From the NCBI GenBank assembly GCA_000934665.2, contig KZ538721.1, positions 1 through 51,569 on the forward strand: a DNA stretch of 51,569 bases. Reading direction: 5' to 3'. A program made the translations under genes and the position numbers. The DNA comes from Catajapyx aquilonaris (Eukaryota). Under the pieces are notes generated by a model. It searched no databases. It was not told the DNA's origin and worked only from the letters and a program-made list of their open reading frames with translations. This document shows, piece after piece, positions 8,205-23,054 of the stretch. Each line of letters begins with the position of its first letter. Positions within the stretch are counted from its first letter, which is position 1.

Positions 8205-8995
8205 CTTTAAGGGATGCCAACGACAGAGCAGTGTAGCCAACGGATTCGGCCCTTACCGTAAAGGAATATACAGTACAATACTTGCATTACACTCGAGATT
8301 ACACTACAGTAACCACTCCTCCGTGCAGTAACCATCTCGTGTATCAGAATTATTTTTGATTGAATGCCGATGAACTGTTGTTTAGTGGCGTATAATTACA
8401 AGCAGCTACATGATATGATGGCTTGATGAGGCGTATTTTGTCATTTGGTGACGGATAATGTAACGAACAATAACGTTTATGAGAGTTCGTTCCAGCCGGC
8501 AGCCGCTATATTTACACCATAAAAATATGGGTTGTACATACTGATATTTTAATAATTATGGCGCAGAGCAGCTATGATACCAACAAAATCAGAATTGCCG
8601 CCGGAACGAAAGCATAGTGTCATTTTCACAAATGTGCGCTTTGCTCACCAAGTTTATTGCCTTAGTTGCAAACTTGTGCCTTTCCCGCGAACTTTGTTTC
8701 AGAAACGGCGAACTCATGTGGCAAATAACCTGCTTAAAATGGAGAGAAACACCGAAAATGCCAATAGATCCACGTCTTCATATAGGCGCAGGCGCCAAAT
8801 CTGCAACTTTGCCGATCCGAAATCGATGGCACCAGCAGTAGACGAATATAACTCACAAAGGTGTAAAACACATGGAAAAGTAGCGGCTGGACCTGTGTGT
8901 CCTAGTGATCAGCACCATCATCTTCATATATCAGGCTGCTCCTGATATTTGCAGTCTATATCGCCCCAGAATATTGTCTGGAGTATTTGTCAGGT
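8205..8995. promoter_or_regulatory. Probable bidirectional promoter/5'UTR region between MTIF2 and the oxygenase-like gene
   Basis: Divergent ATGs ~790 bp apart; relatively CpG-rich; no TE recognised. TSSs cannot be placed from sequence. Confidence 0.55.
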
Positions 8996-10042
8996 ATGGC
9001 AGGCTTGTTAAGCCTGGAGTCTTTGCTGGAAGGCGCCAACGTTCCAGGTGACATTTCCGGCACCAATGAATCCCCACCTCCATGGTTGGATCGCACCAAG
9101 TTTCGACGTGGGCAAAACTTCTTCCAGAAGCATTTCTTCTGTGTCTACTTTGCCCACCTGCTTTCTTTATTGGTGGCCATGGCATGGTCAAGGAGCCTTC
9201 GTGTGCTAATCCATACTGGCAAATCCAACACTCCAGAAAAGGCTTTTAGAAGATATCTGAGCACTTTGCTGCATATCAAACGGTGGTATGAGGGTGATGT
9301 GTGGAGTGATGGGGATGCAGCAAAGTGCAGTGTGCATACTGTGCGGGCCATTCATCGACGTGTTGCGCAGCAAGCAAATGTTAATAAAGACAAGGTGGCG
9401 AATGCTACATGCGTTGGCAAGGCACAACTGTGGCCATTAGTGCAACGTGACCTTGGCTCTGTAGCACCAGCACCCAATATAGGATGTGACACACCATTAT
9501 ATGTGTCGCAATTGGACATGGCTATAACACAGTATGAATTTGTGGGATTAGTCATAATGTGTCCGGAAAAGCTTGGCATGCATGCCACACCACATGATCT
9601 TGATGGCTTCCTACACTTTTGGCGGGGCATGGGATACCTACTGGGCATACAGGATCAATATAACTTATGCTCTGGTGACTTAGATGCAACTCGAAAATTG
9701 TGTTGTGACATAACTGACCGACTCATTGCCCCAAACCTCCGCCTATTTTCTGCTGACTCGGAACTCATGTCTCGTGCGCTGATGGAAGGTACCCGACACA
9801 TAGTGTGCCGCCTTAGCTTCGAATCCATGCTGCTGTACCTGTGCTGGTGCCTCGGACTACACCTACCTTCATTTTATCATGCGCTTCCATGGCACTATCG
9901 CCTACGTTACTGGATGCTACGTTTTGTGTTTGGTGTGCTGGTGCGGATCCCTGGCGTCCTGCCCTCCCTTAACCGGATGCTTGAAAGAGATATATGTGCT
10001 GCTGTCAACCAAATGGAGCAGCGTGATGCACTACCAGTGTAA
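8996..10042 (+). CDS. ER-bound oxygenase MpaB/rubber oxygenase catalytic-domain (DUF2236-type) protein, 348 aa, uninterrupted ORF
   Basis: Family-like motifs P.WLD..KF.RGQ.FF, A.RRYLSTLLHI..WY, VR.IH, SQ.DMAITQ..FVG, F.HFWR..GYLLGI.D.YNLC. First ATG at 8996 follows a CAG acceptor, so an upstream exon is possible. AATAAA at 10161-10166. Confidence 0.85.
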   Translation: MAGLLSLESLLEGANVPGDISGTNESPPPWLDRTKFRRGQNFFQKHFFCVYFAHLLSLLVAMAWSRSLRVLIHTGKSNTPEKAFRRYLSTLLHIKRWYEGDVWSDGDAAKCSVHTVRAIHRRVAQQANVNKDKVANATCVGKAQLWPLVQRDLGSVAPAPNIGCDTPLYVSQLDMAITQYEFVGLVIMCPEKLGMHATPHDLDGFLHFWRGMGYLLGIQDQYNLCSGDLDATRKLCCDITDRLIAPNLRLFSADSELMSRALMEGTRHIVCRLSFESMLLYLCWCLGLHLPSFYHALPWHYRLRYWMLRFVFGVLVRIPGVLPSLNRMLERDICAAVNQMEQRDALPV

Positions 10043-10409
10043 AATATATACTGTACTACACATACAAAATTATTGCAGGTGTGCTGAGCAACTTTAATTT
10101 CTGCAAATATCTATACTACTGTGCCTTTTGCATGATGATGCCAACTGGCAAATAGTGAATAATAAAATGCTGATGATAAAGCCTTTGGTGTCATATTCAT
10201 CATCAGAGACTGATGGACCTTTCATAGCATCATTTCTTTGGTGTCAATATCAAAGTTTAGGCTTCAGGTGCTACAGAGAATATTGAAATGAAGTTAGTAG
10301 AACTTCAGTACCTTGGGGTCATAATCACTGACAGCTACCTTCAGGATAATACAAGGTTATGTAAAATTCCAGGCCAGCTACCACTAGGGTACTTGTTGTT
10401 GAATACAAG

Positions 10410-10625
10410 GTCAGTGACTTTTCGCCGGGAGGTAGAAAAGTGACAGTGCGCCTTCCTTCGGAGGGGAAGTACAGCCGTCAGGCCCATGTGCTTGTGCCAT
10501 TGTGCAAGTGCACGTTAAAGATCCCCAAGTGGCCAAATTTCCAGGAGGAGGACCACCCCCTGGTGTCGGTGTTGAGCCTAGCGGCAGAAATAGGCCGATG
10601 TTAATCCCCACTAAAGTGATTATCA
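10410..10625 (+). mobile_element. SINE fragment (central domain)
   Basis: ccttccttcggaggggaagt...gcacgttaaagatcccca...aaatttcc resembles the central domain of widespread arthropod SINEs (recalled, not aligned); no tRNA head or TSD found. Confidence 0.45.
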
Positions 10626-12671
10626 TCAATCTCATTACCTGAGTTTTTAGCCACTGGTGGTTGGATGAGCTGGAATTACTCCTGACTCACTCTGTATAAC
10701 TCTGCTTAATTGTTAGCTATGCATGGAGTTTCTTACTTGTGAAAATATGTCATTATAATACCAGTTCCAAGTAATTTCACAAGATTGGTAGTGAGGGGGC
10801 ATATGCTCCACTATGTTCCTGCAGTGGGTGGTCATTTGAATTACAGTGTCATGTTAAAGGCTGGAACAAATAAAACATGAGGATCTAATAGCCAATTTAA
10901 TATTTGGCATTTGGATAAGATCATAAGATGAACTAAATTGATAGTTTGCCAAAAAATATATTTAATTGTAAGGTTTAATATAATTTTCTCTTCATATTGT
11001 ATACATTACTTCTAAAATTTCATTTAATATTACTAAATTTAAATTATAATTCACTGCAGAAAACAACATGTATACATCCATATTACATTTGAAAGATGCC
11101 ACAAGGTCATTGCTAGATACAAGATGTTTTTTACTAGTATTCAGGCTGGTAGGGTACTTATTGGCCCAAAACAAGTAAAAAATATAGGAGCCAGAAATGT
11201 CAAGGGTACGTACAACAGGTAGTGAGGTAGATGACCAGACACTTTAATCTGTGCCTAGACATGTGTCAACCAGTTATGGTAGCAATATGCCCTTTTTTCT
11301 ATTGTTTATGAAGTGGGTCCCTCTCCAAAAAAAATTCTGGCTATGCCAGTGCATCAACACATGACACCTTTTCGTAAGGATATCACCTGACTGCATGATG
11401 GACCTGCCTACTTACAGTGGTTGCCTAGAAAATATTTTCCAGCTGGAAAATCAAGGCAATGCCACACATTTTATTTTAGTATTTTGTCATTGAGCAAAAA
11501 ACATAGTTCCAAAGTAGATTGTGGATTGTGGGAGTGACTTCATATACTGTATGTAAGTTTCCACATTTATGCCTCTACGTCCACAGCGCGCACAGCGTGA
11601 TGCATTAAAAGTTTCAGCCTACACATCTTTTTAAAAGTGGTGTGACAGCTTCTAAGTGGATAAGTATTTAAGAGTTTATTATTTAAGAGAGGAGGTAAGC
11701 ACACTCTTCTGGGATTATGCTGTCTACTACTTCCTGCAGTTTGTCCTTCAGGTCATTCATCATGATAAATCAGAGTGGCAGATAATGAAGATATAGTTTC
11801 ATCCTGAATAGTAATCAGATCATTGCTGTTTTGATGCCAGAATTTCTGAAGGGGATGTATAGTTGTGAGATCTTCTGACCATTTTGCCACCGTACTGGAA
11901 AAAGTCACATCTGCGCATTGTGATAATGTCGTGTTTTCAAGTTGACAGGTCCAAACAACCTTATCGTAATGTGCACATATGACATTTTTTCCTGGTAAGA
12001 TAGCAGCATTGCCAATGTGTACAATTCACATGCATGTTGATGCCTAGCAGGGGTGTGTGGGCTGCGAGGTGGGCTGGCTTCTTGGGGCCTGGGTGAGAAT
12101 AGAAGGATCTGCTGGAGGTCCTCAATGTGATGGTTTGTCTCTAAAAATTAAAAGGCCTGGATGAGTTCAATTTTTGGCCCATTTAAGTTTTTGTTTGTAA
12201 AACATTCTCTACATGGATATGCCACTATTATTTTAACATTCCAAGTCCCCTAGAATACTCTAGAAGTTTGCCAGAAAACTGGTACCTATTTTTAATGATG
12301 AACAATTCGTCATTCATGACCTGTTCATGACCCAATCATCGGCGCTCGCGTGCACACAGACGACACCACACTGTGTACTTCGTGCCAATGATGACCCATG
12401 AGTACAAAAGGTACCTTAGTGGGCTTCACACAAGTCAGACCTGAGCAAGACCACCATGCGTGAGCCAGACAATTCCTACCTTGATTCCTACATTACATGC
12501 TGAACCAGCCATGATTCGTAAATAAGTGGTACCAACAGTAAGTCAGTAACACAATGTCTTTTAATTACACACATCTTAGGAAATTTTATATATCTTGTTA
12601 AGAAATAAACATAGCAGCAACCAGAAGACTACAGGTTCCACTTAATAATGAATATAATTTAGAAGGCATAT

Positions 12672-12681
12672 GTCACGTGAC
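12672..12681. promoter_or_regulatory. Palindromic extended E-box (CLEAR-type GTCACGTGAC) in the probable SIRT2 promoter
   Basis: Exact GTCACGTGAC at the start of a CpG-rich patch (12670-12880) upstream of the candidate first exon. Confidence 0.4.
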
Positions 12682-12871
12682 TGACTAGTTGCCGTCTAGC
12701 CGAAAGTGTCATGGCCGCGCAGTGAGGAACGTTAGGAGCCGGTTTTTGGAGGAAAGACTGACTTGGCTGTAAAAACAAGAGACGGTTGGGCACTTGCGCT
12801 TGGTAAGCCGCTCGCTGCCAGGTCTAACAAGCCAACTCAGTCTCAGCGGAGTGTAAAATAGAAGAAAAGAT

Positions 12872-12881
12872 ATGGCGGAAG
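12872..12881 (+). CDS. SIRT2: Candidate first coding exon of SIRT2 (ATG GCG GAA G|gtgaga)
   Basis: Phase-1 donor matches the phase-1 acceptor at 24626, giving [12 protein letters not shown]; CpG-rich context. Inferred, no transcript data. Confidence 0.55.
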
Positions 12882-13514
12882 GTGAGAGCTGAAGAGAATT
12901 TGACCTGGCCAGTTGTGCATAGTTGACTGCACTGCAGTCTCTTCGCTGTGTAGGTAGCTGGGTTTGTGTAAATGCTACTGGTTGTGTGATTGAAGATAAA
13001 CTTTCTATAATTTAGTAGCCGATAAAAGACTAAGACATATGCATACCATTGACACAGGAATGGTGCAAATACATATTTGCAAGGAGGAACATCATGTGAC
13101 ATAAAATGAGGGGCTGAGGATCAAAAATTGCCAATTGACATTTTCATGAAAAATGAGTTAGGCACGGCATAGGGTTCTTAGGGGTGCACTGCACATTACC
13201 TTTGAATGTCGTATCAAAACTAGCACTCCTTCCCATGGTAATCAAGGGGAGAAAAGACTCTGAGGATCAAAACCCAACGACTATTTTCGAGATATGCGAA
13301 ACAAAAGCCGCCAACTGCAGTGTCTTGTGTGTCTGTGTCAGAAACTGCCAACTACTGTGTGCAAAATGAGTGAAGAATGAATGCAATAATTACTTCCACC
13401 ACTGACTTTTCGCGTCAAAAAGTGCCAATTACGTTGTGTCGGAATCAAAACCCACCAACTGCAACAAACAAGATTTAATTGTTGATGAACAAATGCAACT
13501 AGATTTTAAATATA

Positions 13515-13991
13515 CAGTAAAACTTCTGTAAGTCGAACTTCCCTAAGTCAAAGTTCTCTATATAAGTCGAAGAAAATGATGAGCTTGGTTGGTCACAATG
13601 TAAAATAATTGGAAATAAATTTCCCTAACTCGAATTTTTATAACTCGAAGTTCTCCATAACTCAAAGTGCTTGCGGGGCCTTACGATGGGCTATCAATTT
13701 ATTTTCAGTCTCCCTAAGTCGAAGTTCATATTGGTGAGTACGGATAGTTTTCTCATTTCCCAGCCGAAGGGTCGAGAGTAGGCCACATGTACAGAAAGGC
13801 TCAATTTCCTGATATCTGTCTACCAGACATACCGAAAGAAGTGTTTGACTCGATTGTGACAATTTATTGAATCCTTGAATCCAAGAGTAGGCAAATGTCC
13901 GTAACAGAGTTTTTTTTTTTACAACAAAACAACGAGGTACATTGTAAGTGTGATAGTGACAGTTATTTTTAAGTTTTGAACACCTTTCGTC
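13515..13991 (+). mobile_element. Truncated pogo/Tigger-like MITE (left part of the family complete at 22420-23012)
   Basis: TA|CAGTAAAACTTCT...; colinear with the 22420 copy up to gaacacctttcgtc, then switches to Helitron sequence. Confidence 0.85.
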
Positions 13992-15603
13992 ACGTGCACA
14001 TGGTCCTCTGGATAAAGAATGCGCCAGTGTTGGGGCGCGAATCAGTAGAAGAAATCTCCCGCTTCATTCAAAACCACGTGACTTGCGAACTCCCCAACGC
14101 TAATGTCCGTCCCAAACTGCATCAGCTTGTAAGCAAGTTTCAGGCTCACATGTGTAGTAGATACTGCAAGAGACCTACCCAGATGGAAGGAAGGTTCGTT
14201 ACCCGCTGCAAGTTCAGCTTCCCCAGAAAAGAGACAGAACATTTCATGCTCCACGATCTCATTTCTTCCGTTCGTCACAGGCAGAGCGCCAAGTCTGGCC
14301 AAGTCTAGACGGTCCTTTCAGACGTGTGAGACGAAATGTCCAAGTGCAACTCGCTCGTGCAGCAACTATGGAAGTTTGCCATGCGTGTCCTCACCGGCAG
14401 AGAGTGCGGAGCCTACGAAGCTGCAGGAAGACTTATCGGTGTCAGCATGTACGGAAAGACCTCCTCTATCAAGTACGTTAATGTGCTCATGACCCACCTA
14501 AGGACAAGGCGCCTAAAGAGCATTTCTGATATCGAAGACATACGAGTCAAGTCTCCGGAGTCTGAGAATATTTTCGAGAACAGTTGGGTGGACGACTATT
14601 ACCCCAATAGGCCTATGTCTATGGAAGACATATGCCTGTACGACGTTCTACGACTACACGACTATGTGAAGCGATCCAAGTCAACCGAAGGGCTCATCGT
14701 CCTCCAGTACAACAAGGGTTTGTTTAGGCTGAGGGTAAAACCCCACCTCATCAGCCACCGTCGATTCAACCCGTCGAAGGACATGGAGAGAGAACAGTAT
14801 TACTTTTCCATGCTGTTTCTGTTCTGCCCCTGGTGCGTCGAGAGCAACATTATACAGGGTCATTCCACTTTTGAGTCTGCGTTTAGGGTAGTCCTACCCA
14901 AAATCAAGACGCTCCATGAGTACCACGATAAGTTGTATACCATAAGAGAGGCAGAAGAAGAACTTATGAAGAACCTAGAAAAGGAAACACAGAACAACGA
15001 CTCCGATCCAGCACAAACATCTGGTGAGAGATTTATTCAGGGAGAAGAGCTCGAGACAGCAGCTATGATGGCTATGAAGGATCTTGCCAACGCTATGACA
15101 CATGATCCCATGGAGGACCTGGACCTCTTGGTATCACACCTAAACACCGATCAATCACGAGTATATTCCAGGATAAAAGATAAGATCTCTTCCGGACAAG
15201 TTGTACGCATGTTTGTCAGTGGCTGCGGAGGAACTGGAAAGAGTTTCCTGATAAATTCCCTAAAAGTAATGATGATGAAGATGTTTAGGGGAGACGGAGT
15301 GGCGCCGCGGTAACGTGTGCGCCCACGGATGTTAAGGTCCCGGGTTCGATCCCAGCCCGGGGACACCCCCTTCATCTCGTGCAGAGTTCTGGGGTCGTCT
15401 CTGGCTTCGTCTCGGGTGGTATATCCGCAGACTAAACCACCCGGGGGAGTTCACAAAACGACCAAGCACCGTTACCGCACTGCACTTGCACATCCCCTCC
15501 TGTCATCCTGCCCGTGGGCCCGGGCAGGTTACAATGTACTGTACCACTAATTAACAAGTAAAGGTCTGTGCTGATACCGATAAGGTGAGCACTATACCCA
15601 ACA

Positions 15604-15658
<55 letters not shown>

Positions 15659-17773
15659 GATGAAGATGTTTCCTTCTGAGAACATCGTGGTGGCAGTAGC
15701 GGCACCAACGGGACTAGCAGCGTTCAACGTCAGTGGAGTTACCATCCACAAGTTGGTGCAGGTGCCAGTAGAGCACGGTTCTACTGCTTCATACAGGCCA
15801 CTAACCGACGACACAGTCCAAGTCCTGAGATGTTGGTTCAGGAATCTGAAGCTCCTCATCGTAGACGAGGTGTCTATGGTGTCCAACCTCCTACTACTAT
15901 ATATTCACCTCCGACTACGTGAGATATTTTGCTGCAGAGAAGAGTGGTTTGGCAGAATCAGCGTCATTCTCTTTGGGGACCTTCTGTAGTTAATGCCAGT
16001 TAAAGGTCAGCCTGCTTTTAAGGAATTCAGGAGCAAGGAGATGTCAGAAAAGGTGGGGGGAGCAGGCGCCATCAACTTGTGGCGTGAGCTCTTAGAGTAA
16101 GAAGAGCTCCTCATAAACATGAGGCAGGAAAAGGACACTACCTACCAGAGGCTTCTGGCCGAGGTGCGAATCGGACAAGTGTCAGAGCCTACCTCCGTCT
16201 CCTATCAAGCAGGGTCTCACCATCTGACAGCGACCCATGTGACGTCTACAACCATTGCAAGACTGGAGGCTTGAATCCAGTTTGTCTCCTGCCTACAAAC
16301 GATGTGTGCCACCACTTCAACAAACGTATGCTTCTCTATCGTCTTGCCAACAGACGGTTCGACTCGAGGCTGAAGACAAGTTCACAGGCAACTTCGCAGG
16401 CAGGCAGAGGGGAAGCAAGCATTTGGAGAGTCTTCAAAATGATTCCTCCCGTACCGCCGGCCTCGAGACCATCCTCACCCTTGGTGTTGGATGTCGCATC
16501 ATGCTTCGTCAAAATATAGACCTACAAGAGGGTCTGGTTAATGGCACCATGGGCACAGTGTCAGGCTTTAGGTTGGAGAGTGGGCGGATCTCGGCTGTAA
16601 AAGTACAATTTGACAACATACCCGAGAACAACAAATGTATTGTCAGATGTGTGGTCAAGTTCAAACTAGGGTCAAACATATATGTGGAACGCAAGCAATT
16701 TCCTTTGATCCTGGCCTACGCCATCACTATCCACAAGTGCCAGGGCTTAACTTTAGATTCAGCAGTGATCGACCTCAGCAAGTCTGTGTTTGCCAGCGGC
16801 ATGGCATACGTCGCACTGTCACGGGTCAAGTCACTCCAGAGCCTTCACATCCTTCGGCTAGACGAATGTTGCATCAAGGCAGACGTAAGCAGCTTGAGAG
16901 AATACAATCGACTACGAGGCACTCTTTCACTGCCGCCTTTGTCACTGCTTAAGACCACCACGAAACGCCCCTGTGCAGCTACTGCAGCTCCAGTTATTAA
17001 AGGATTCCACAACCCTACCCCTAAGGTCTTGTGCTATGCTAATGCCACATTAGTCCGCCTCTTCGCACAAGACAAATTTAGGGTACTCCTAGTGAGTTCG
17101 AATGCAAGCAACAATGTCGTGCGAGCGATGCCTCTACAAAACAAAAAATTCAAAGGAAGAACTAGACTTGTCGCCCCCTCTTTATACTGCGTGAGAACAT
17201 CTGTTGGAGGACCCTTTGTCCTGGAGGAGCAGCAGGACTGCATGGAATTCCTCGAACATCTCGTAGAGAAATTGCCCCCGCAAATTAGACAATGGGGGAC
17301 GCACCAGCGCCGAGACCAGTACCATTGTAACTACTGCAACGCCAGATGGGAAGGGCCAGAAATAACTCATCGCTATCTACCTCTTGTCCCGAGACAGGAG
17401 AGCGTCAAGTTCGACACCCTGTTCCTACAGAAGGACGAGGAACTTGCGCACACAATGGGTACACACCAGGTCCGTCAGTATCAAGCACGTTGATAATTGC
17501 ATAATATTATACCTGGTACGGTATGATGACAAGGGGGTGAAAATCGAGACAGAAGTTGAAGCCTTCAACCCAGATAGGATTGTCGTGGATTCCCTGCAAT
17601 TCTACTGCAATGCTGCAATTATTCACAACGGCAAAACATCAAATGCCGGTCATTACACCTCCATTATCAAAGAAGCAGATCAATGGCTACACTTGAATGA
17701 CTCAGTAGAGCCAGAAGTACACCCTCAAAAAATACTTAGACATGCATATGTGATATTTTTGGCCCCTACCTAA
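13992..17773 (+). pseudogene. Disrupted Rep / Pif1 helicase / USP (peptidase C19) polyprotein
   Basis: Pif1 motifs GCGGTGKS, AAPTGLAAFNVSGVTIH, LIVDEVSMV, FGDLL*L.PV, NMRQ, RKQFPLILAYAITIHKCQGLTL, GMAYVALSRV. USP motifs GFHNPTPKVLCYANATL, QQDCMEFL, CNYC, HNGKTSNAGHYTS, WLHLNDS, AYVIF. Lesions: stops at 15987-15989 and 16098-16100, frameshifts at ~14310, ~16200-16340 and ~17450, and a SINE insertion. Confidence 0.85.
15287..15656 (+). mobile_element. Full-length tRNA-derived SINE (family A) inside the helicase ORF
   Basis: A-box-like TGGCGCCGCGGT, B box GGTTCGATCCC, (ATT)n tail; 15-bp TSD atgatgaagatgttt (15272-15286, 15657-15671). Confidence 0.92.
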
Positions 17774-17788
17774 ATTGCTCTGCATAAT

Positions 17789-17878
17789 CAGGGATGGAAA
17801 AAGAACCGAAGAAGCGGTTCTTTGTCCATATGCCCTTATGGAAAAAGAACCGCTTCTTCAGTTCTTTTTCCATCCCTG
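17789..17878. mobile_element. 90-bp double-hairpin MITE (hAT-like)
   Basis: TIR CAGGGATGGAAAAAGAAC; flanks tgcataat/gtcataat (6/8). Confidence 0.65.
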
Positions 17879-18085
17879 GTCATAATAAATGTCATTAAAA
17901 TGCATACTCTGTCAAGTTTCCTTCAAATAAACTGTTTGACAGCATGTACCGAGCATATAAATTTTATATGCGTGGCAGAATAGTTGGCACTTAGGCCACT
18001 ATTCTCGAAAGTCAATTTTCATAATTTTAAAACTCGTAGTGAGGTTTTTTTTTTTTTTGTCAAATAAACCTGATATATTCTAGTG

Positions 18086-22149: not shown

Positions 22150-23054
22150 CAGTGGTTCCCAATCCCTGGGTCATGCCCCAAAATGGGATCACCAGCATGT
22201 TTTTAAGGGTCGCAGGGAAAGTCTGGAAAAAGGAATAGATTTTAAAAAACAGAAGAAAAAATAAGGGAAAGAAGGAAACTTTTGGGGAGAAAGTCATCTC
22301 AAATCTACATAAGCATTGTACGTGGTTGAACGTTGTGGTAATAAAATTTTTCGAGAAAAAGCGGGATTGGAGGAGGGAGGGGGAGTCCATAAGAGTCACC
22401 AGGTCAAGGAAAGGTTGTACAGTAAAACTTCTATAAGTCGAACTTCCCTAAGTCGAAGTTCTCTATAAGTCGAAGAAAATTATGAACTTGGTTGGTCACA
22501 ATGTAAAAGAATAGGAAATAAACTTTCCTAACTCGAATTTCTATAGCTCGAAGTTCTCCATAACTTGAAGTGCTGGCAGGACCTTACGATGGGATGTCAA
22601 TGCATTTTCAGTCTCCCTAAGTCGAAGTTCATGTTGGCGAGTACGGAAAATTTTCTCATTTCTCAGACAAAGGGTAGAGAGTAGGCCACATGTACAGAAA
22701 GGCTCTATTTCCTGATTTCCGTCTACCAGACGTACCGAAAGAAGTGTTTGGCTCGATTGTGACAATTGAATCCTTGAATCTAAGAGTAGGCACATGTCCA
22801 TAACGGAGATTTTTTTACAACAAAACAACGAGGAACATTGTAAGTGTGATAGTGACAGTAATTTTTAAGTATTGAACACCTTTCGTCGCTGGATATAAAG
22901 GTAGGCTTCCTTATAGAGTTCTGTGATTTAAAAAAGCCAAACTTCTCTAACTCGAATCTTCTATAACTCTAAGTTTTTTCCCGTGGAGATTCGACTTATA
23001 GAAGTTTTACTGTACGTGGATAGGGCCGCGACGAAAAACAGTTGGGAACCACTG
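22150..23054. mobile_element. hAT (Charlie-like) MITE with nested pogo-like MITE
   Basis: CAGTGGTTCCCAA...TTGGGAACCACTG; flanks ttctaggt/ctctagat (NTCTAGAN-type site). Confidence 0.75.
22420..23012. mobile_element. Complete pogo/Tigger-like MITE (593 bp)
   Basis: TA|CAGTAAAACTTCTATAAGTCGAA...TTCGACTTATAGAAGTTTTACTG|TA. Confidence 0.9.

Follow-up and report, generated by a model that had tools for sequence, protein, structure and literature searches.

A degenerate HLE2 rolling-circle transposon in Catajapyx aquilonaris with a USP-type deubiquitinase domain continuing the frame of its Pif1 helicase

Results

Domain content of the element

The DNA analysed (the window) is a stretch of 51,569 nucleotides from the genome of Catajapyx aquilonaris (GenBank assembly GCA_000934665.2, contig KZ538721.1, positions 1 to 51,569 of the forward strand). 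The element in question is a degenerate rolling-circle transposon at 13,992 to 17,773 of the window, in which the reading frame of the Rep-Pif1 helicase continues into a ubiquitin-specific protease (USP, peptidase family C19) domain. The USP directly continues the Pif1 frame past helicase motif VI within one stop-free open reading frame (ORF, 16243-17493) of the window translation, which starts in the Pif1 2B domain and spans the motif VI sequence YVALSRV, the USP Cys box, the QQD box and the first CxxC pair. The Cys box, GFHNPTPKVLCYAN, occupies 17002-17043 with the catalytic Cys codon at 17032-17034, and both QQDCMEFL (17230-17253) and CNYC (17326-17337) are in the same frame as YVALSRV. The next frame (ORF 17366-17773) encodes HNGKTSNAGHY (17624-17656), WLHLNDS (17684-17704) and AYVIF (17744-17758). 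The catalytic triad is kept in the window copy (Cys 17032, His 17651, Asp 17699).

The Pfam profile UCH (PF00443) matched the C-terminal half of the window USP with 30.6 bits, above the cut-off of 23.9, and the N-terminal half with 19.6 bits, below it, while PIF1 and Pif1_2B matched pieces upstream (E values in Table 1). An earlier note on this stretch, made from the sequence without database searches, had listed USP motifs following YVALSRV, and all of them are at the positions it gave. The profile for the Rep domain, Helitron_like_N, was matched in the sister copy L023 (E 1e-27), together with PIF1 within one 1289-aa frame. A Pfam scan of the 111-aa Rep remnant of the window copy matched no Rep family, and the identity of the remnant rests on 66% identity to the Rep of L023; the window copy keeps the HVH and Pif1 motifs and is 62-76% identical to L023 over most pieces. 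The USP profile matched 44 PDB sequences, every one named ubiquitin carboxyl-terminal hydrolase, the best being USP2 (E 2e-14). Pfam gave no Exo_endo_phos match, and the ORF ends at the USP in each of the three families of copies, A, B and C, described below.

Table 1. Features of the element and its immediate surroundings in the window
Feature	Position	Strand	Evidence
MITE-like (miniature inverted-repeat transposable element) high-copy repeat, unrelated to the Helitron-like element	13513..13991	.	at least 38 other contigs match at 89-93% (40 of 5021 candidates scored)
Rep remnant, starts at HUH motif HVHMVLW	13991..14305	+	66% identity to L023 residues 722-825
Rep C-terminal part, linker and Pif1 Walker A GCGGTGKS (15221-15244)	14309..15286	+	PIF1 E 9.7e-7
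SINE-like (short interspersed nuclear element) insertion with (ATT)n tail	15287..15656	+	15-bp target-site duplication 15272-15286/15657-15671; dispersed copies elsewhere
Remaining Pif1 helicase including 2B domain	15657..16827	+	PIF1 E 6.5e-12, Pif1_2B E 9.1e-7
Pif1 motifs DEVSMV, GDLL, HKCQG and YVALSRV	15864, 15975, 16732 and 16807-16827	+	sequence
In-frame 58-codon linker from helicase motif VI to USP, without Gly-Gly	16828..17001	+	translation; like stretch in family C
USP N-terminal half: Cys box, QQD box, first zinc CxxC	17002..17447	+	UCH E 7.5e-4, three-family alignment
Break: 13-bp and 1-bp deletion	17447..17467	+	blastn against sisters L029, L030
USP C-terminal half: His 17651-17653, Asp 17699-17701, stop 17771-17773	17468..17773	+	UCH E 3.3e-7
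90-bp palindromic insertion, 3' non-coding	17789..17878	.	self-inverted match 91%; missing in L029; near-identical 8-bp flanking duplication
Final family-specific 3' sequence, then another repeat	17879..17965	+	comparison with sister copies

Decay of the window copy

The window copy is decayed and non-mobile, with no likely function of its own. The N-terminal ~720 aa are lost, including DUF6570 and Rep motif 1, and blastx of the region upstream of the break (10101-13990) revealed no Rep remnant. The last ~125 bp of the MITE-like repeat are missing, indicating that a deletion joined the interior of this repeat to the interior of Rep (5' break at 13991). A further ~55 codons were deleted at ~14305, a tblastn gap from sister residues 825 to 880; they include the tyrosine motif of Rep, which reads YVTKYITK at residue 869 of the sister. 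Three stops (14306, 15987 and 16098) and two frameshifts (one near 16196, the other near 16335) add to the damage. Both element termini were sought in the window and neither was found, the family sequence ending at 17965; sister copies extend ~900 bp beyond, through a long fold-back to the true terminus.

The break that the earlier note had described as one frameshift near 17450 is present at that place and is the outcome of a 13-bp and a 1-bp deletion; besides the SINE-like insertion the frame contains more lesions than this one. The deletion removes the second zinc CxxC, so that the triad is kept while the fingers are damaged. The description of the copy as dead with intact catalytic residues thus holds for the triad and for the death of the element, and does not extend to the zinc fingers. 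Assembly error as the source of the decay was rejected because the SINE-like insertion and the multi-base deletions are real lesions.

Among the neighbouring features, a fuller copy of the MITE-like repeat with terminal inverted repeats lies at ~22420-23012 of the window. ARAGORN detected no tRNA in the SINE-like insertion, whose A and B boxes were recognised by eye only. An intronless 377-codon frame at 8909-10042 (+) matches Pfam MPAB_Lcp_cat (mpaB/rubber oxygenase) with an E value of 7e-6.

Families in the genome and selection on the USP

Searched against the Catajapyx genome, one half of the USP matched 60 places and the other 53 (70 and 63 candidates scored). Three related families are present, A (that of the window copy), B and C, with the USP ~33-50% identical between families and with Cys, His and Asp kept in all three by alignment. 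Pif1 is directly upstream in 22 of the 29 USP-bearing contigs examined, the USP piece standing alone in the remaining seven. At three family-C loci the entire 282-aa USP continues the helicase frame without a stop. The UCH profile matches these intact sister domains with E values of 5e-17 to 3e-16 and scores of 60-63 bits, covering positions 4-253 of its 254. The upstream ORF of family C carries DUF6570 (E 2e-14 and 4e-14) and Helitron_like_N.

The ratio of nonsynonymous to synonymous substitution (dN/dS) between pairs of family-C USPs was 0.13-0.77 with a median of 0.32 (15 pairs), every pair being below 1, and that of family-C Pif1 was 0.06-0.34 (10 pairs). The window copy and the most diverged family-A sister gave 0.39 over 186 USP codons. 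The USP is under purifying selection as a trait of the lineage, and the proposal of the earlier note that this lineage carries a compact USP fused to Rep-Pif1 is borne out by the upstream Pif1, the intact family-C copies and the dN/dS values.

Two family-B copies, L026:4887-7640 (-) and L031:6296-8488 (-), located on different contigs, are each downstream of a long intronless ORF with glycine-rich repeats; these related-looking ORFs may be cargo, part of a shared duplication or there by chance. A second, divergent HLE2 transposase is found within or beside family-C copies (L025:3300-6302, L024:8814-9635), consistent with self-insertion among rolling-circle elements.

Element class and termini

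The source element belongs to HLE2 (the Helitron2/Helentron group) and has a single ORF comprising an N-terminal region, DUF6570, Rep (HUH), Pif1 and USP, without an endonuclease. DUF6570 is present upstream of Rep in sister family C and lay in the region deleted from the window copy. In a tree without curated Repbase references the helicase groups among DUF6570-bearing proteins, far from the sole DUF6570-less protein, which was taken as HLE1. The earlier note had spoken of a Helentron-type element; in the strict, endonuclease-bearing sense this label was rejected, there being no apurinic/apyrimidinic (AP) endonuclease after the helicase in families A, B and C, and the element is described as HLE2/Helitron2-type.

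The left end of families A and C is a sharp TT start followed by a small stem-loop and then TAGTAAGACC, and the reverse repeat GGTCTTACTA is found ~35 nt inside the far (right) end. The left boundary falls between A and TT in six of six family-A loci, four of which have the right end also; this reads ...GATAAT followed by unique flank. Such ends would fit insertion between AT and T. Family-B ends are sharp with unique flanks, and no left end was found in the family-B loci examined. A long fold-back is present at the downstream end in all three families, with arms of ~150-220 bp that are 350-510 bp apart at the inner edge. Fold-backs at L065:3394-4296, L028:667-1341 and L052:64-881 have arms 92-100% complementary within a copy and a repeated GTAAGA(C/T)CT. 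The arms differ between families and match within each, which suggests regeneration or homogenisation during transposition. A high-copy non-autonomous family (L022:858-1316, L077-L089) shares the left end of family C and then diverges, in the manner of a DINE-1-like partner; of 644 candidate matches 40 were scored, which placed it on at least 38 other contigs.

Predicted fold of the USP

The domain of sister L022 was modelled with AlphaFold2 from a 62-row alignment, in which His, Asp and the four zinc Cys are nearly invariant. The model had a predicted local distance difference test score (pLDDT) of 90.9 and a predicted template-modelling score (pTM) of 0.89, in agreement with a USP assignment by the earlier note. 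The top Foldseek match was the USP2-ubiquitin structure 2ibi (E 1.2e-17, template-modelling score (TM) 0.68), followed by USP35, USP46, USP8 and USP21, and all the top PDB matches listed were USPs; compact giant-virus USPs matched the model equally well. As modelled, the intact sister domain is a USP fold with Cys-His-Asp and the zinc CxxC pairs.

Pif1-USP proteins from other sources

A query with the USP alone against long proteins gave no homolog among 2921 candidates scored, and a helicase-plus-USP query retrieved 30 long proteins. Six of the 30 are single chains with DUF6570 and/or Rep, Pif1 and a C-terminal UCH, one of them named Bemisia tabaci. A Pif1-USP protein from Caenorhabditis auriculariae reaches the UCH cut-off, and one further protein matches the custom USP profile. 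Among the 150 best matches to the USP profile, 16 have Pif1 upstream in the same chain, those named being from Trichogramma kaykai and Anthonomus grandis. The distinct proteins from other sources with Pif1 and USP in one chain total 23.

In a tree of USP domains 26 of 27 transposon-linked domains are on one side of a branch (99/98) that separates them from 16 cellular-type USPs, labelled as such from the motif alone. The subgroups of the USP tree match the helicase tree, which points to inheritance as a unit, and USP and helicase have long been co-inherited. The exception, on a long branch, is P0006, a full-length HLE2 transposase whose C-terminal USP resembles cellular USPs in its Cys box and falls among them in the tree; from its sequence it is possibly a second, independent USP capture. 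The Bemisia tabaci protein P0002 has two tandem USPs after Pif1 (residues ~2390-2990), the first with Ser at the catalytic Cys position and the second with Cys, and their position as sisters in the tree indicates local duplication. In proteins P0031-P0034 USP-like stretches are repeated many times in tandem, with up to 19 matched in 3205 aa, and there is no similarity to Pif1.

USP, OTU and endonuclease at the C-terminal position

An OTU domain is present in seven of the same 30 proteins; its position or the tail was read in six, in all of which it follows Pif1. An AP endonuclease is present in others of the 30. The helicase tree contained 22 rows (LG+G4) and was rebuilt from a 40-row quick tree by dropping 18 rows that were near-duplicates, partial, tail-less or distant. 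USP- and OTU-tailed helicases are intermixed in one clade (100/99 versus endonuclease-bearing outgroups). Approximately unbiased tests of a single OTU clade and a single USP clade gave p values of 0.007 and 0.028, the latter a weaker rejection; both values are optimistic, since the groups were defined with the quick tree already in view and 18 of its 40 rows were left out. These sequence comparisons are suggestive of at least two exchanges of deubiquitinase class. The USP is C-terminal after Pif1, where related elements have an AP endonuclease, as the earlier note had supposed. The Anthonomus grandis protein P0052 has Pif1, an AP-endonuclease-like stretch (motifs by eye) and then a transposon-type USP, a layout indicating that endonuclease and USP can co-occur.

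Discussion

Proposed role of the USP

It is almost certain that the Pif1-USP fusion is real and conserved, and quite probable that the USP of intact elements is active on ubiquitin or a ubiquitin-like protein. Overall, the element in the window is read as a decayed HLE2 copy whose intact relatives would carry a USP deubiquitinase acting in cis, to which a probability of about 0.5 is given. Hosts clear protein-DNA adducts and stalled helicases via ubiquitin-directed extraction, p97 and proteolysis. Rep nicks the DNA and stays covalently bound via its tyrosine while Pif1 unwinds ~10 kb. In the mechanism proposed, host ubiquitin-directed extraction and proteolysis would target this covalent Rep-DNA adduct, and the tethered USP would strip ubiquitin chains off the transposase or off whatever lies next to it, allowing the round to be completed. 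Because an OTU fills the same position in close relatives, the property under selection may be deubiquitinase activity of any class. Constant tethering, like the swapping of USP and OTU, accords with a need to remove chains locally and with little specificity. Protection of the transposition complex as the main role of the USP is proposed tentatively, at somewhat less than an even chance.

Several observations weigh against a USP deubiquitinase acting in cis. The 29 contigs were picked by USP match and not by element. The dN/dS of the USP exceeds that of Pif1 in family C; the pairs are non-independent and include neutral decay after insertion, which raised the ratio. The folded L022 domain is 43% identical to the window copy, and the alignment used for folding contained USP relatives. 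The Cys box deviates from the cellular consensus in all three families, with an extended loop ahead of the Cys and without the Gln that normally stands four residues past CxxN, and in family B NHY replaces GHY. Lastly, many HLE2 transposases are without a recognisable deubiquitinase tail (among them P0020, P0022, P0025, P0026 and P0030), from which it follows that a deubiquitinase is not needed for transposition in general.

An alternative is that the USP works, at the donor and the target site, on factors of chromatin, replication or repair (H2A/H2B ubiquitin, PCNA, FANCD2), the effect being to open silent chromatin or steer gap filling rather than to act on the transposase. Fusion to a DNA-tracking helicase would bring the USP to chromatin, a chromatin role has been suggested for the Helentron OTU (PMC4067079), and USP1, USP21, USP12/46 and Ubp8 resemble the modelled fold about as closely as USP2 does. 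However, near-equal structural matches across USPs (TM 0.64-0.71) are uninformative on substrate, the 282-aa domain is without an accessory targeting module, and its interchange with OTU speaks for little selectivity among substrates; this alternative is considered unlikely. Still less probable is that the USP persists because it binds ubiquitin or has a structural part in the protein, or that its substrate is a ubiquitin-like protein (NEDD8, SUMO), with ubiquitin hydrolysis incidental. That view draws on the divergent Cys box, the Ser in the first USP of the Bemisia protein and the cleavage of NEDD8 by Helitron VTD deubiquitinases (PMC9741609), and is opposed by the retention of Cys, His and Asp across the three families and the near invariance of His and Asp in the 62 rows.

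The main task of the USP might also be to process the ~2000-aa transposase as a polyprotein, in the manner of the USP-fold papain-like proteases of viruses; viral USP-like and papain-like domains are among its structural neighbours, and cleavage into Rep and Hel subunits was proposed for the OTU (PMC4067079). Between helicase and USP, the region surveyed in families A, B and C, there is no Gly-Gly, and the conserved zinc fingers with their four nearly invariant Cys are of the ubiquitin-holding kind; such a role is judged improbable. Helitrons capture host fragments, and the grouping of the P0006 USP with cellular-type USPs suggests that fresh captures may occur, yet the single capture of a host USP fragment as neutral cargo, an alternative that the earlier note had named as a one-off fusion, is contradicted by three diverged families, the 23 Pif1-USP proteins of other origin, dN/dS values that are all below 1, the intronless in-frame USP and the transposon-specific clade, and was ruled out as next to inconceivable.

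A wider reading, which is doubtful, is that in a large HLE2 branch the C-terminus of the transposase is reserved for a deubiquitinase. On this reading an early transposon-specific USP co-diverged there with the helicase, in hosts that include insects and nematodes, and was replaced by OTU at least twice, driven by ubiquitin-dependent removal of the adduct; host attack on the covalent Rep-DNA intermediate as the cause is equally doubtful. If true, hosts would generally restrict rolling-circle transposition through ubiquitin, and the compact USPs would form a distinct, assayable subfamily. The fusion, the selection and the interchange of USP and OTU make it testable why rolling-circle transposons repeatedly acquire deubiquitinases of different classes. 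The intact 282-aa sister domains are a direct substrate for such testing and may rank among the most compact zinc-finger USPs.

Comparison with known systems

An association of USP domains with these transposons has been recorded by HELIANO (Li et al., NAR 2024, PMC11417382), in which UCH/PF00443 is among 20 stably captured domains and is almost confined to HLE2, being enriched in subgroups c and d, which come mostly from lungfish and axolotl, with a row in Table S11; UCH is counted there among 17 domains in different ORFs. That record is a Pfam row in a survey and describes a separate ORF. The novelty left open by the earlier note does not hold for the association as such. The HELIANO elements as described share with the present ones the HLE2 transposase, DUF6570, a stably carried UCH and the lack of an endonuclease; here, in contrast, the USP is inside the transposase ORF and the relatives with a species name come from insects and a nematode. 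A Ginger paper cites a DDE transposase of Trichomonas that carries C19, and PMC8788227 does not mention ubiquitin, UCH, protease, C19 or OTU. The literature searched, with Repbase, Dfam and most subscription journals outside it, contains no description of an in-frame Helitron-USP fusion, a transposon-specific USP clade or an exchange of USP and OTU, and a Repbase entry may already describe the fusion. Thus the association is known, and the in-frame fusion, the USP clade and the USP/OTU interchange are under-described details.

A close parallel is offered by the Helitron-borne VTD deubiquitinases, which are active on K48 and K63 chains and for which protection of transposition proteins was proposed (Erven et al., Nat Commun 2022, PMC9741609). 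The VTD/OTU Helentrons also have a deubiquitinase within the rolling-circle transposase ORF, with catalytic residues kept and the same proposed purpose. The present domain differs in being a USP/C19, in its C-terminal position after Pif1, in the absence of an AP endonuclease and in being known from sequence and model, whereas the VTDs were assayed.

The termini have in common with Helentron/DINE-1 and Fusarium FoHeli elements (PMC4067079, PMC5148889, PMC11417382) short inverted repeats near both ends, a small stem-loop at one end and what appear to be T-rich insertion sites. The stem-loop is upstream of the ORF here, as in 'HLE2-reverse' elements (FoHeli, Helitron2) and some Helentrons (same sources), and the downstream fold-back is far longer than the short inverted repeat of DINE-1. 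With cellular USPs (USP2, USP21, USP35, USP46) and giant-virus USPs the domain shares the Cys, QQD and His boxes, the two CxxC pairs and the fold (TM 0.64-0.72). It differs from the cellular enzymes in its ~20% identity to them, in a Cys box of the form G[FL]xNP..CYAN in place of GLxNxGNTC[YF]xN and in belonging to a transposon-linked clade.

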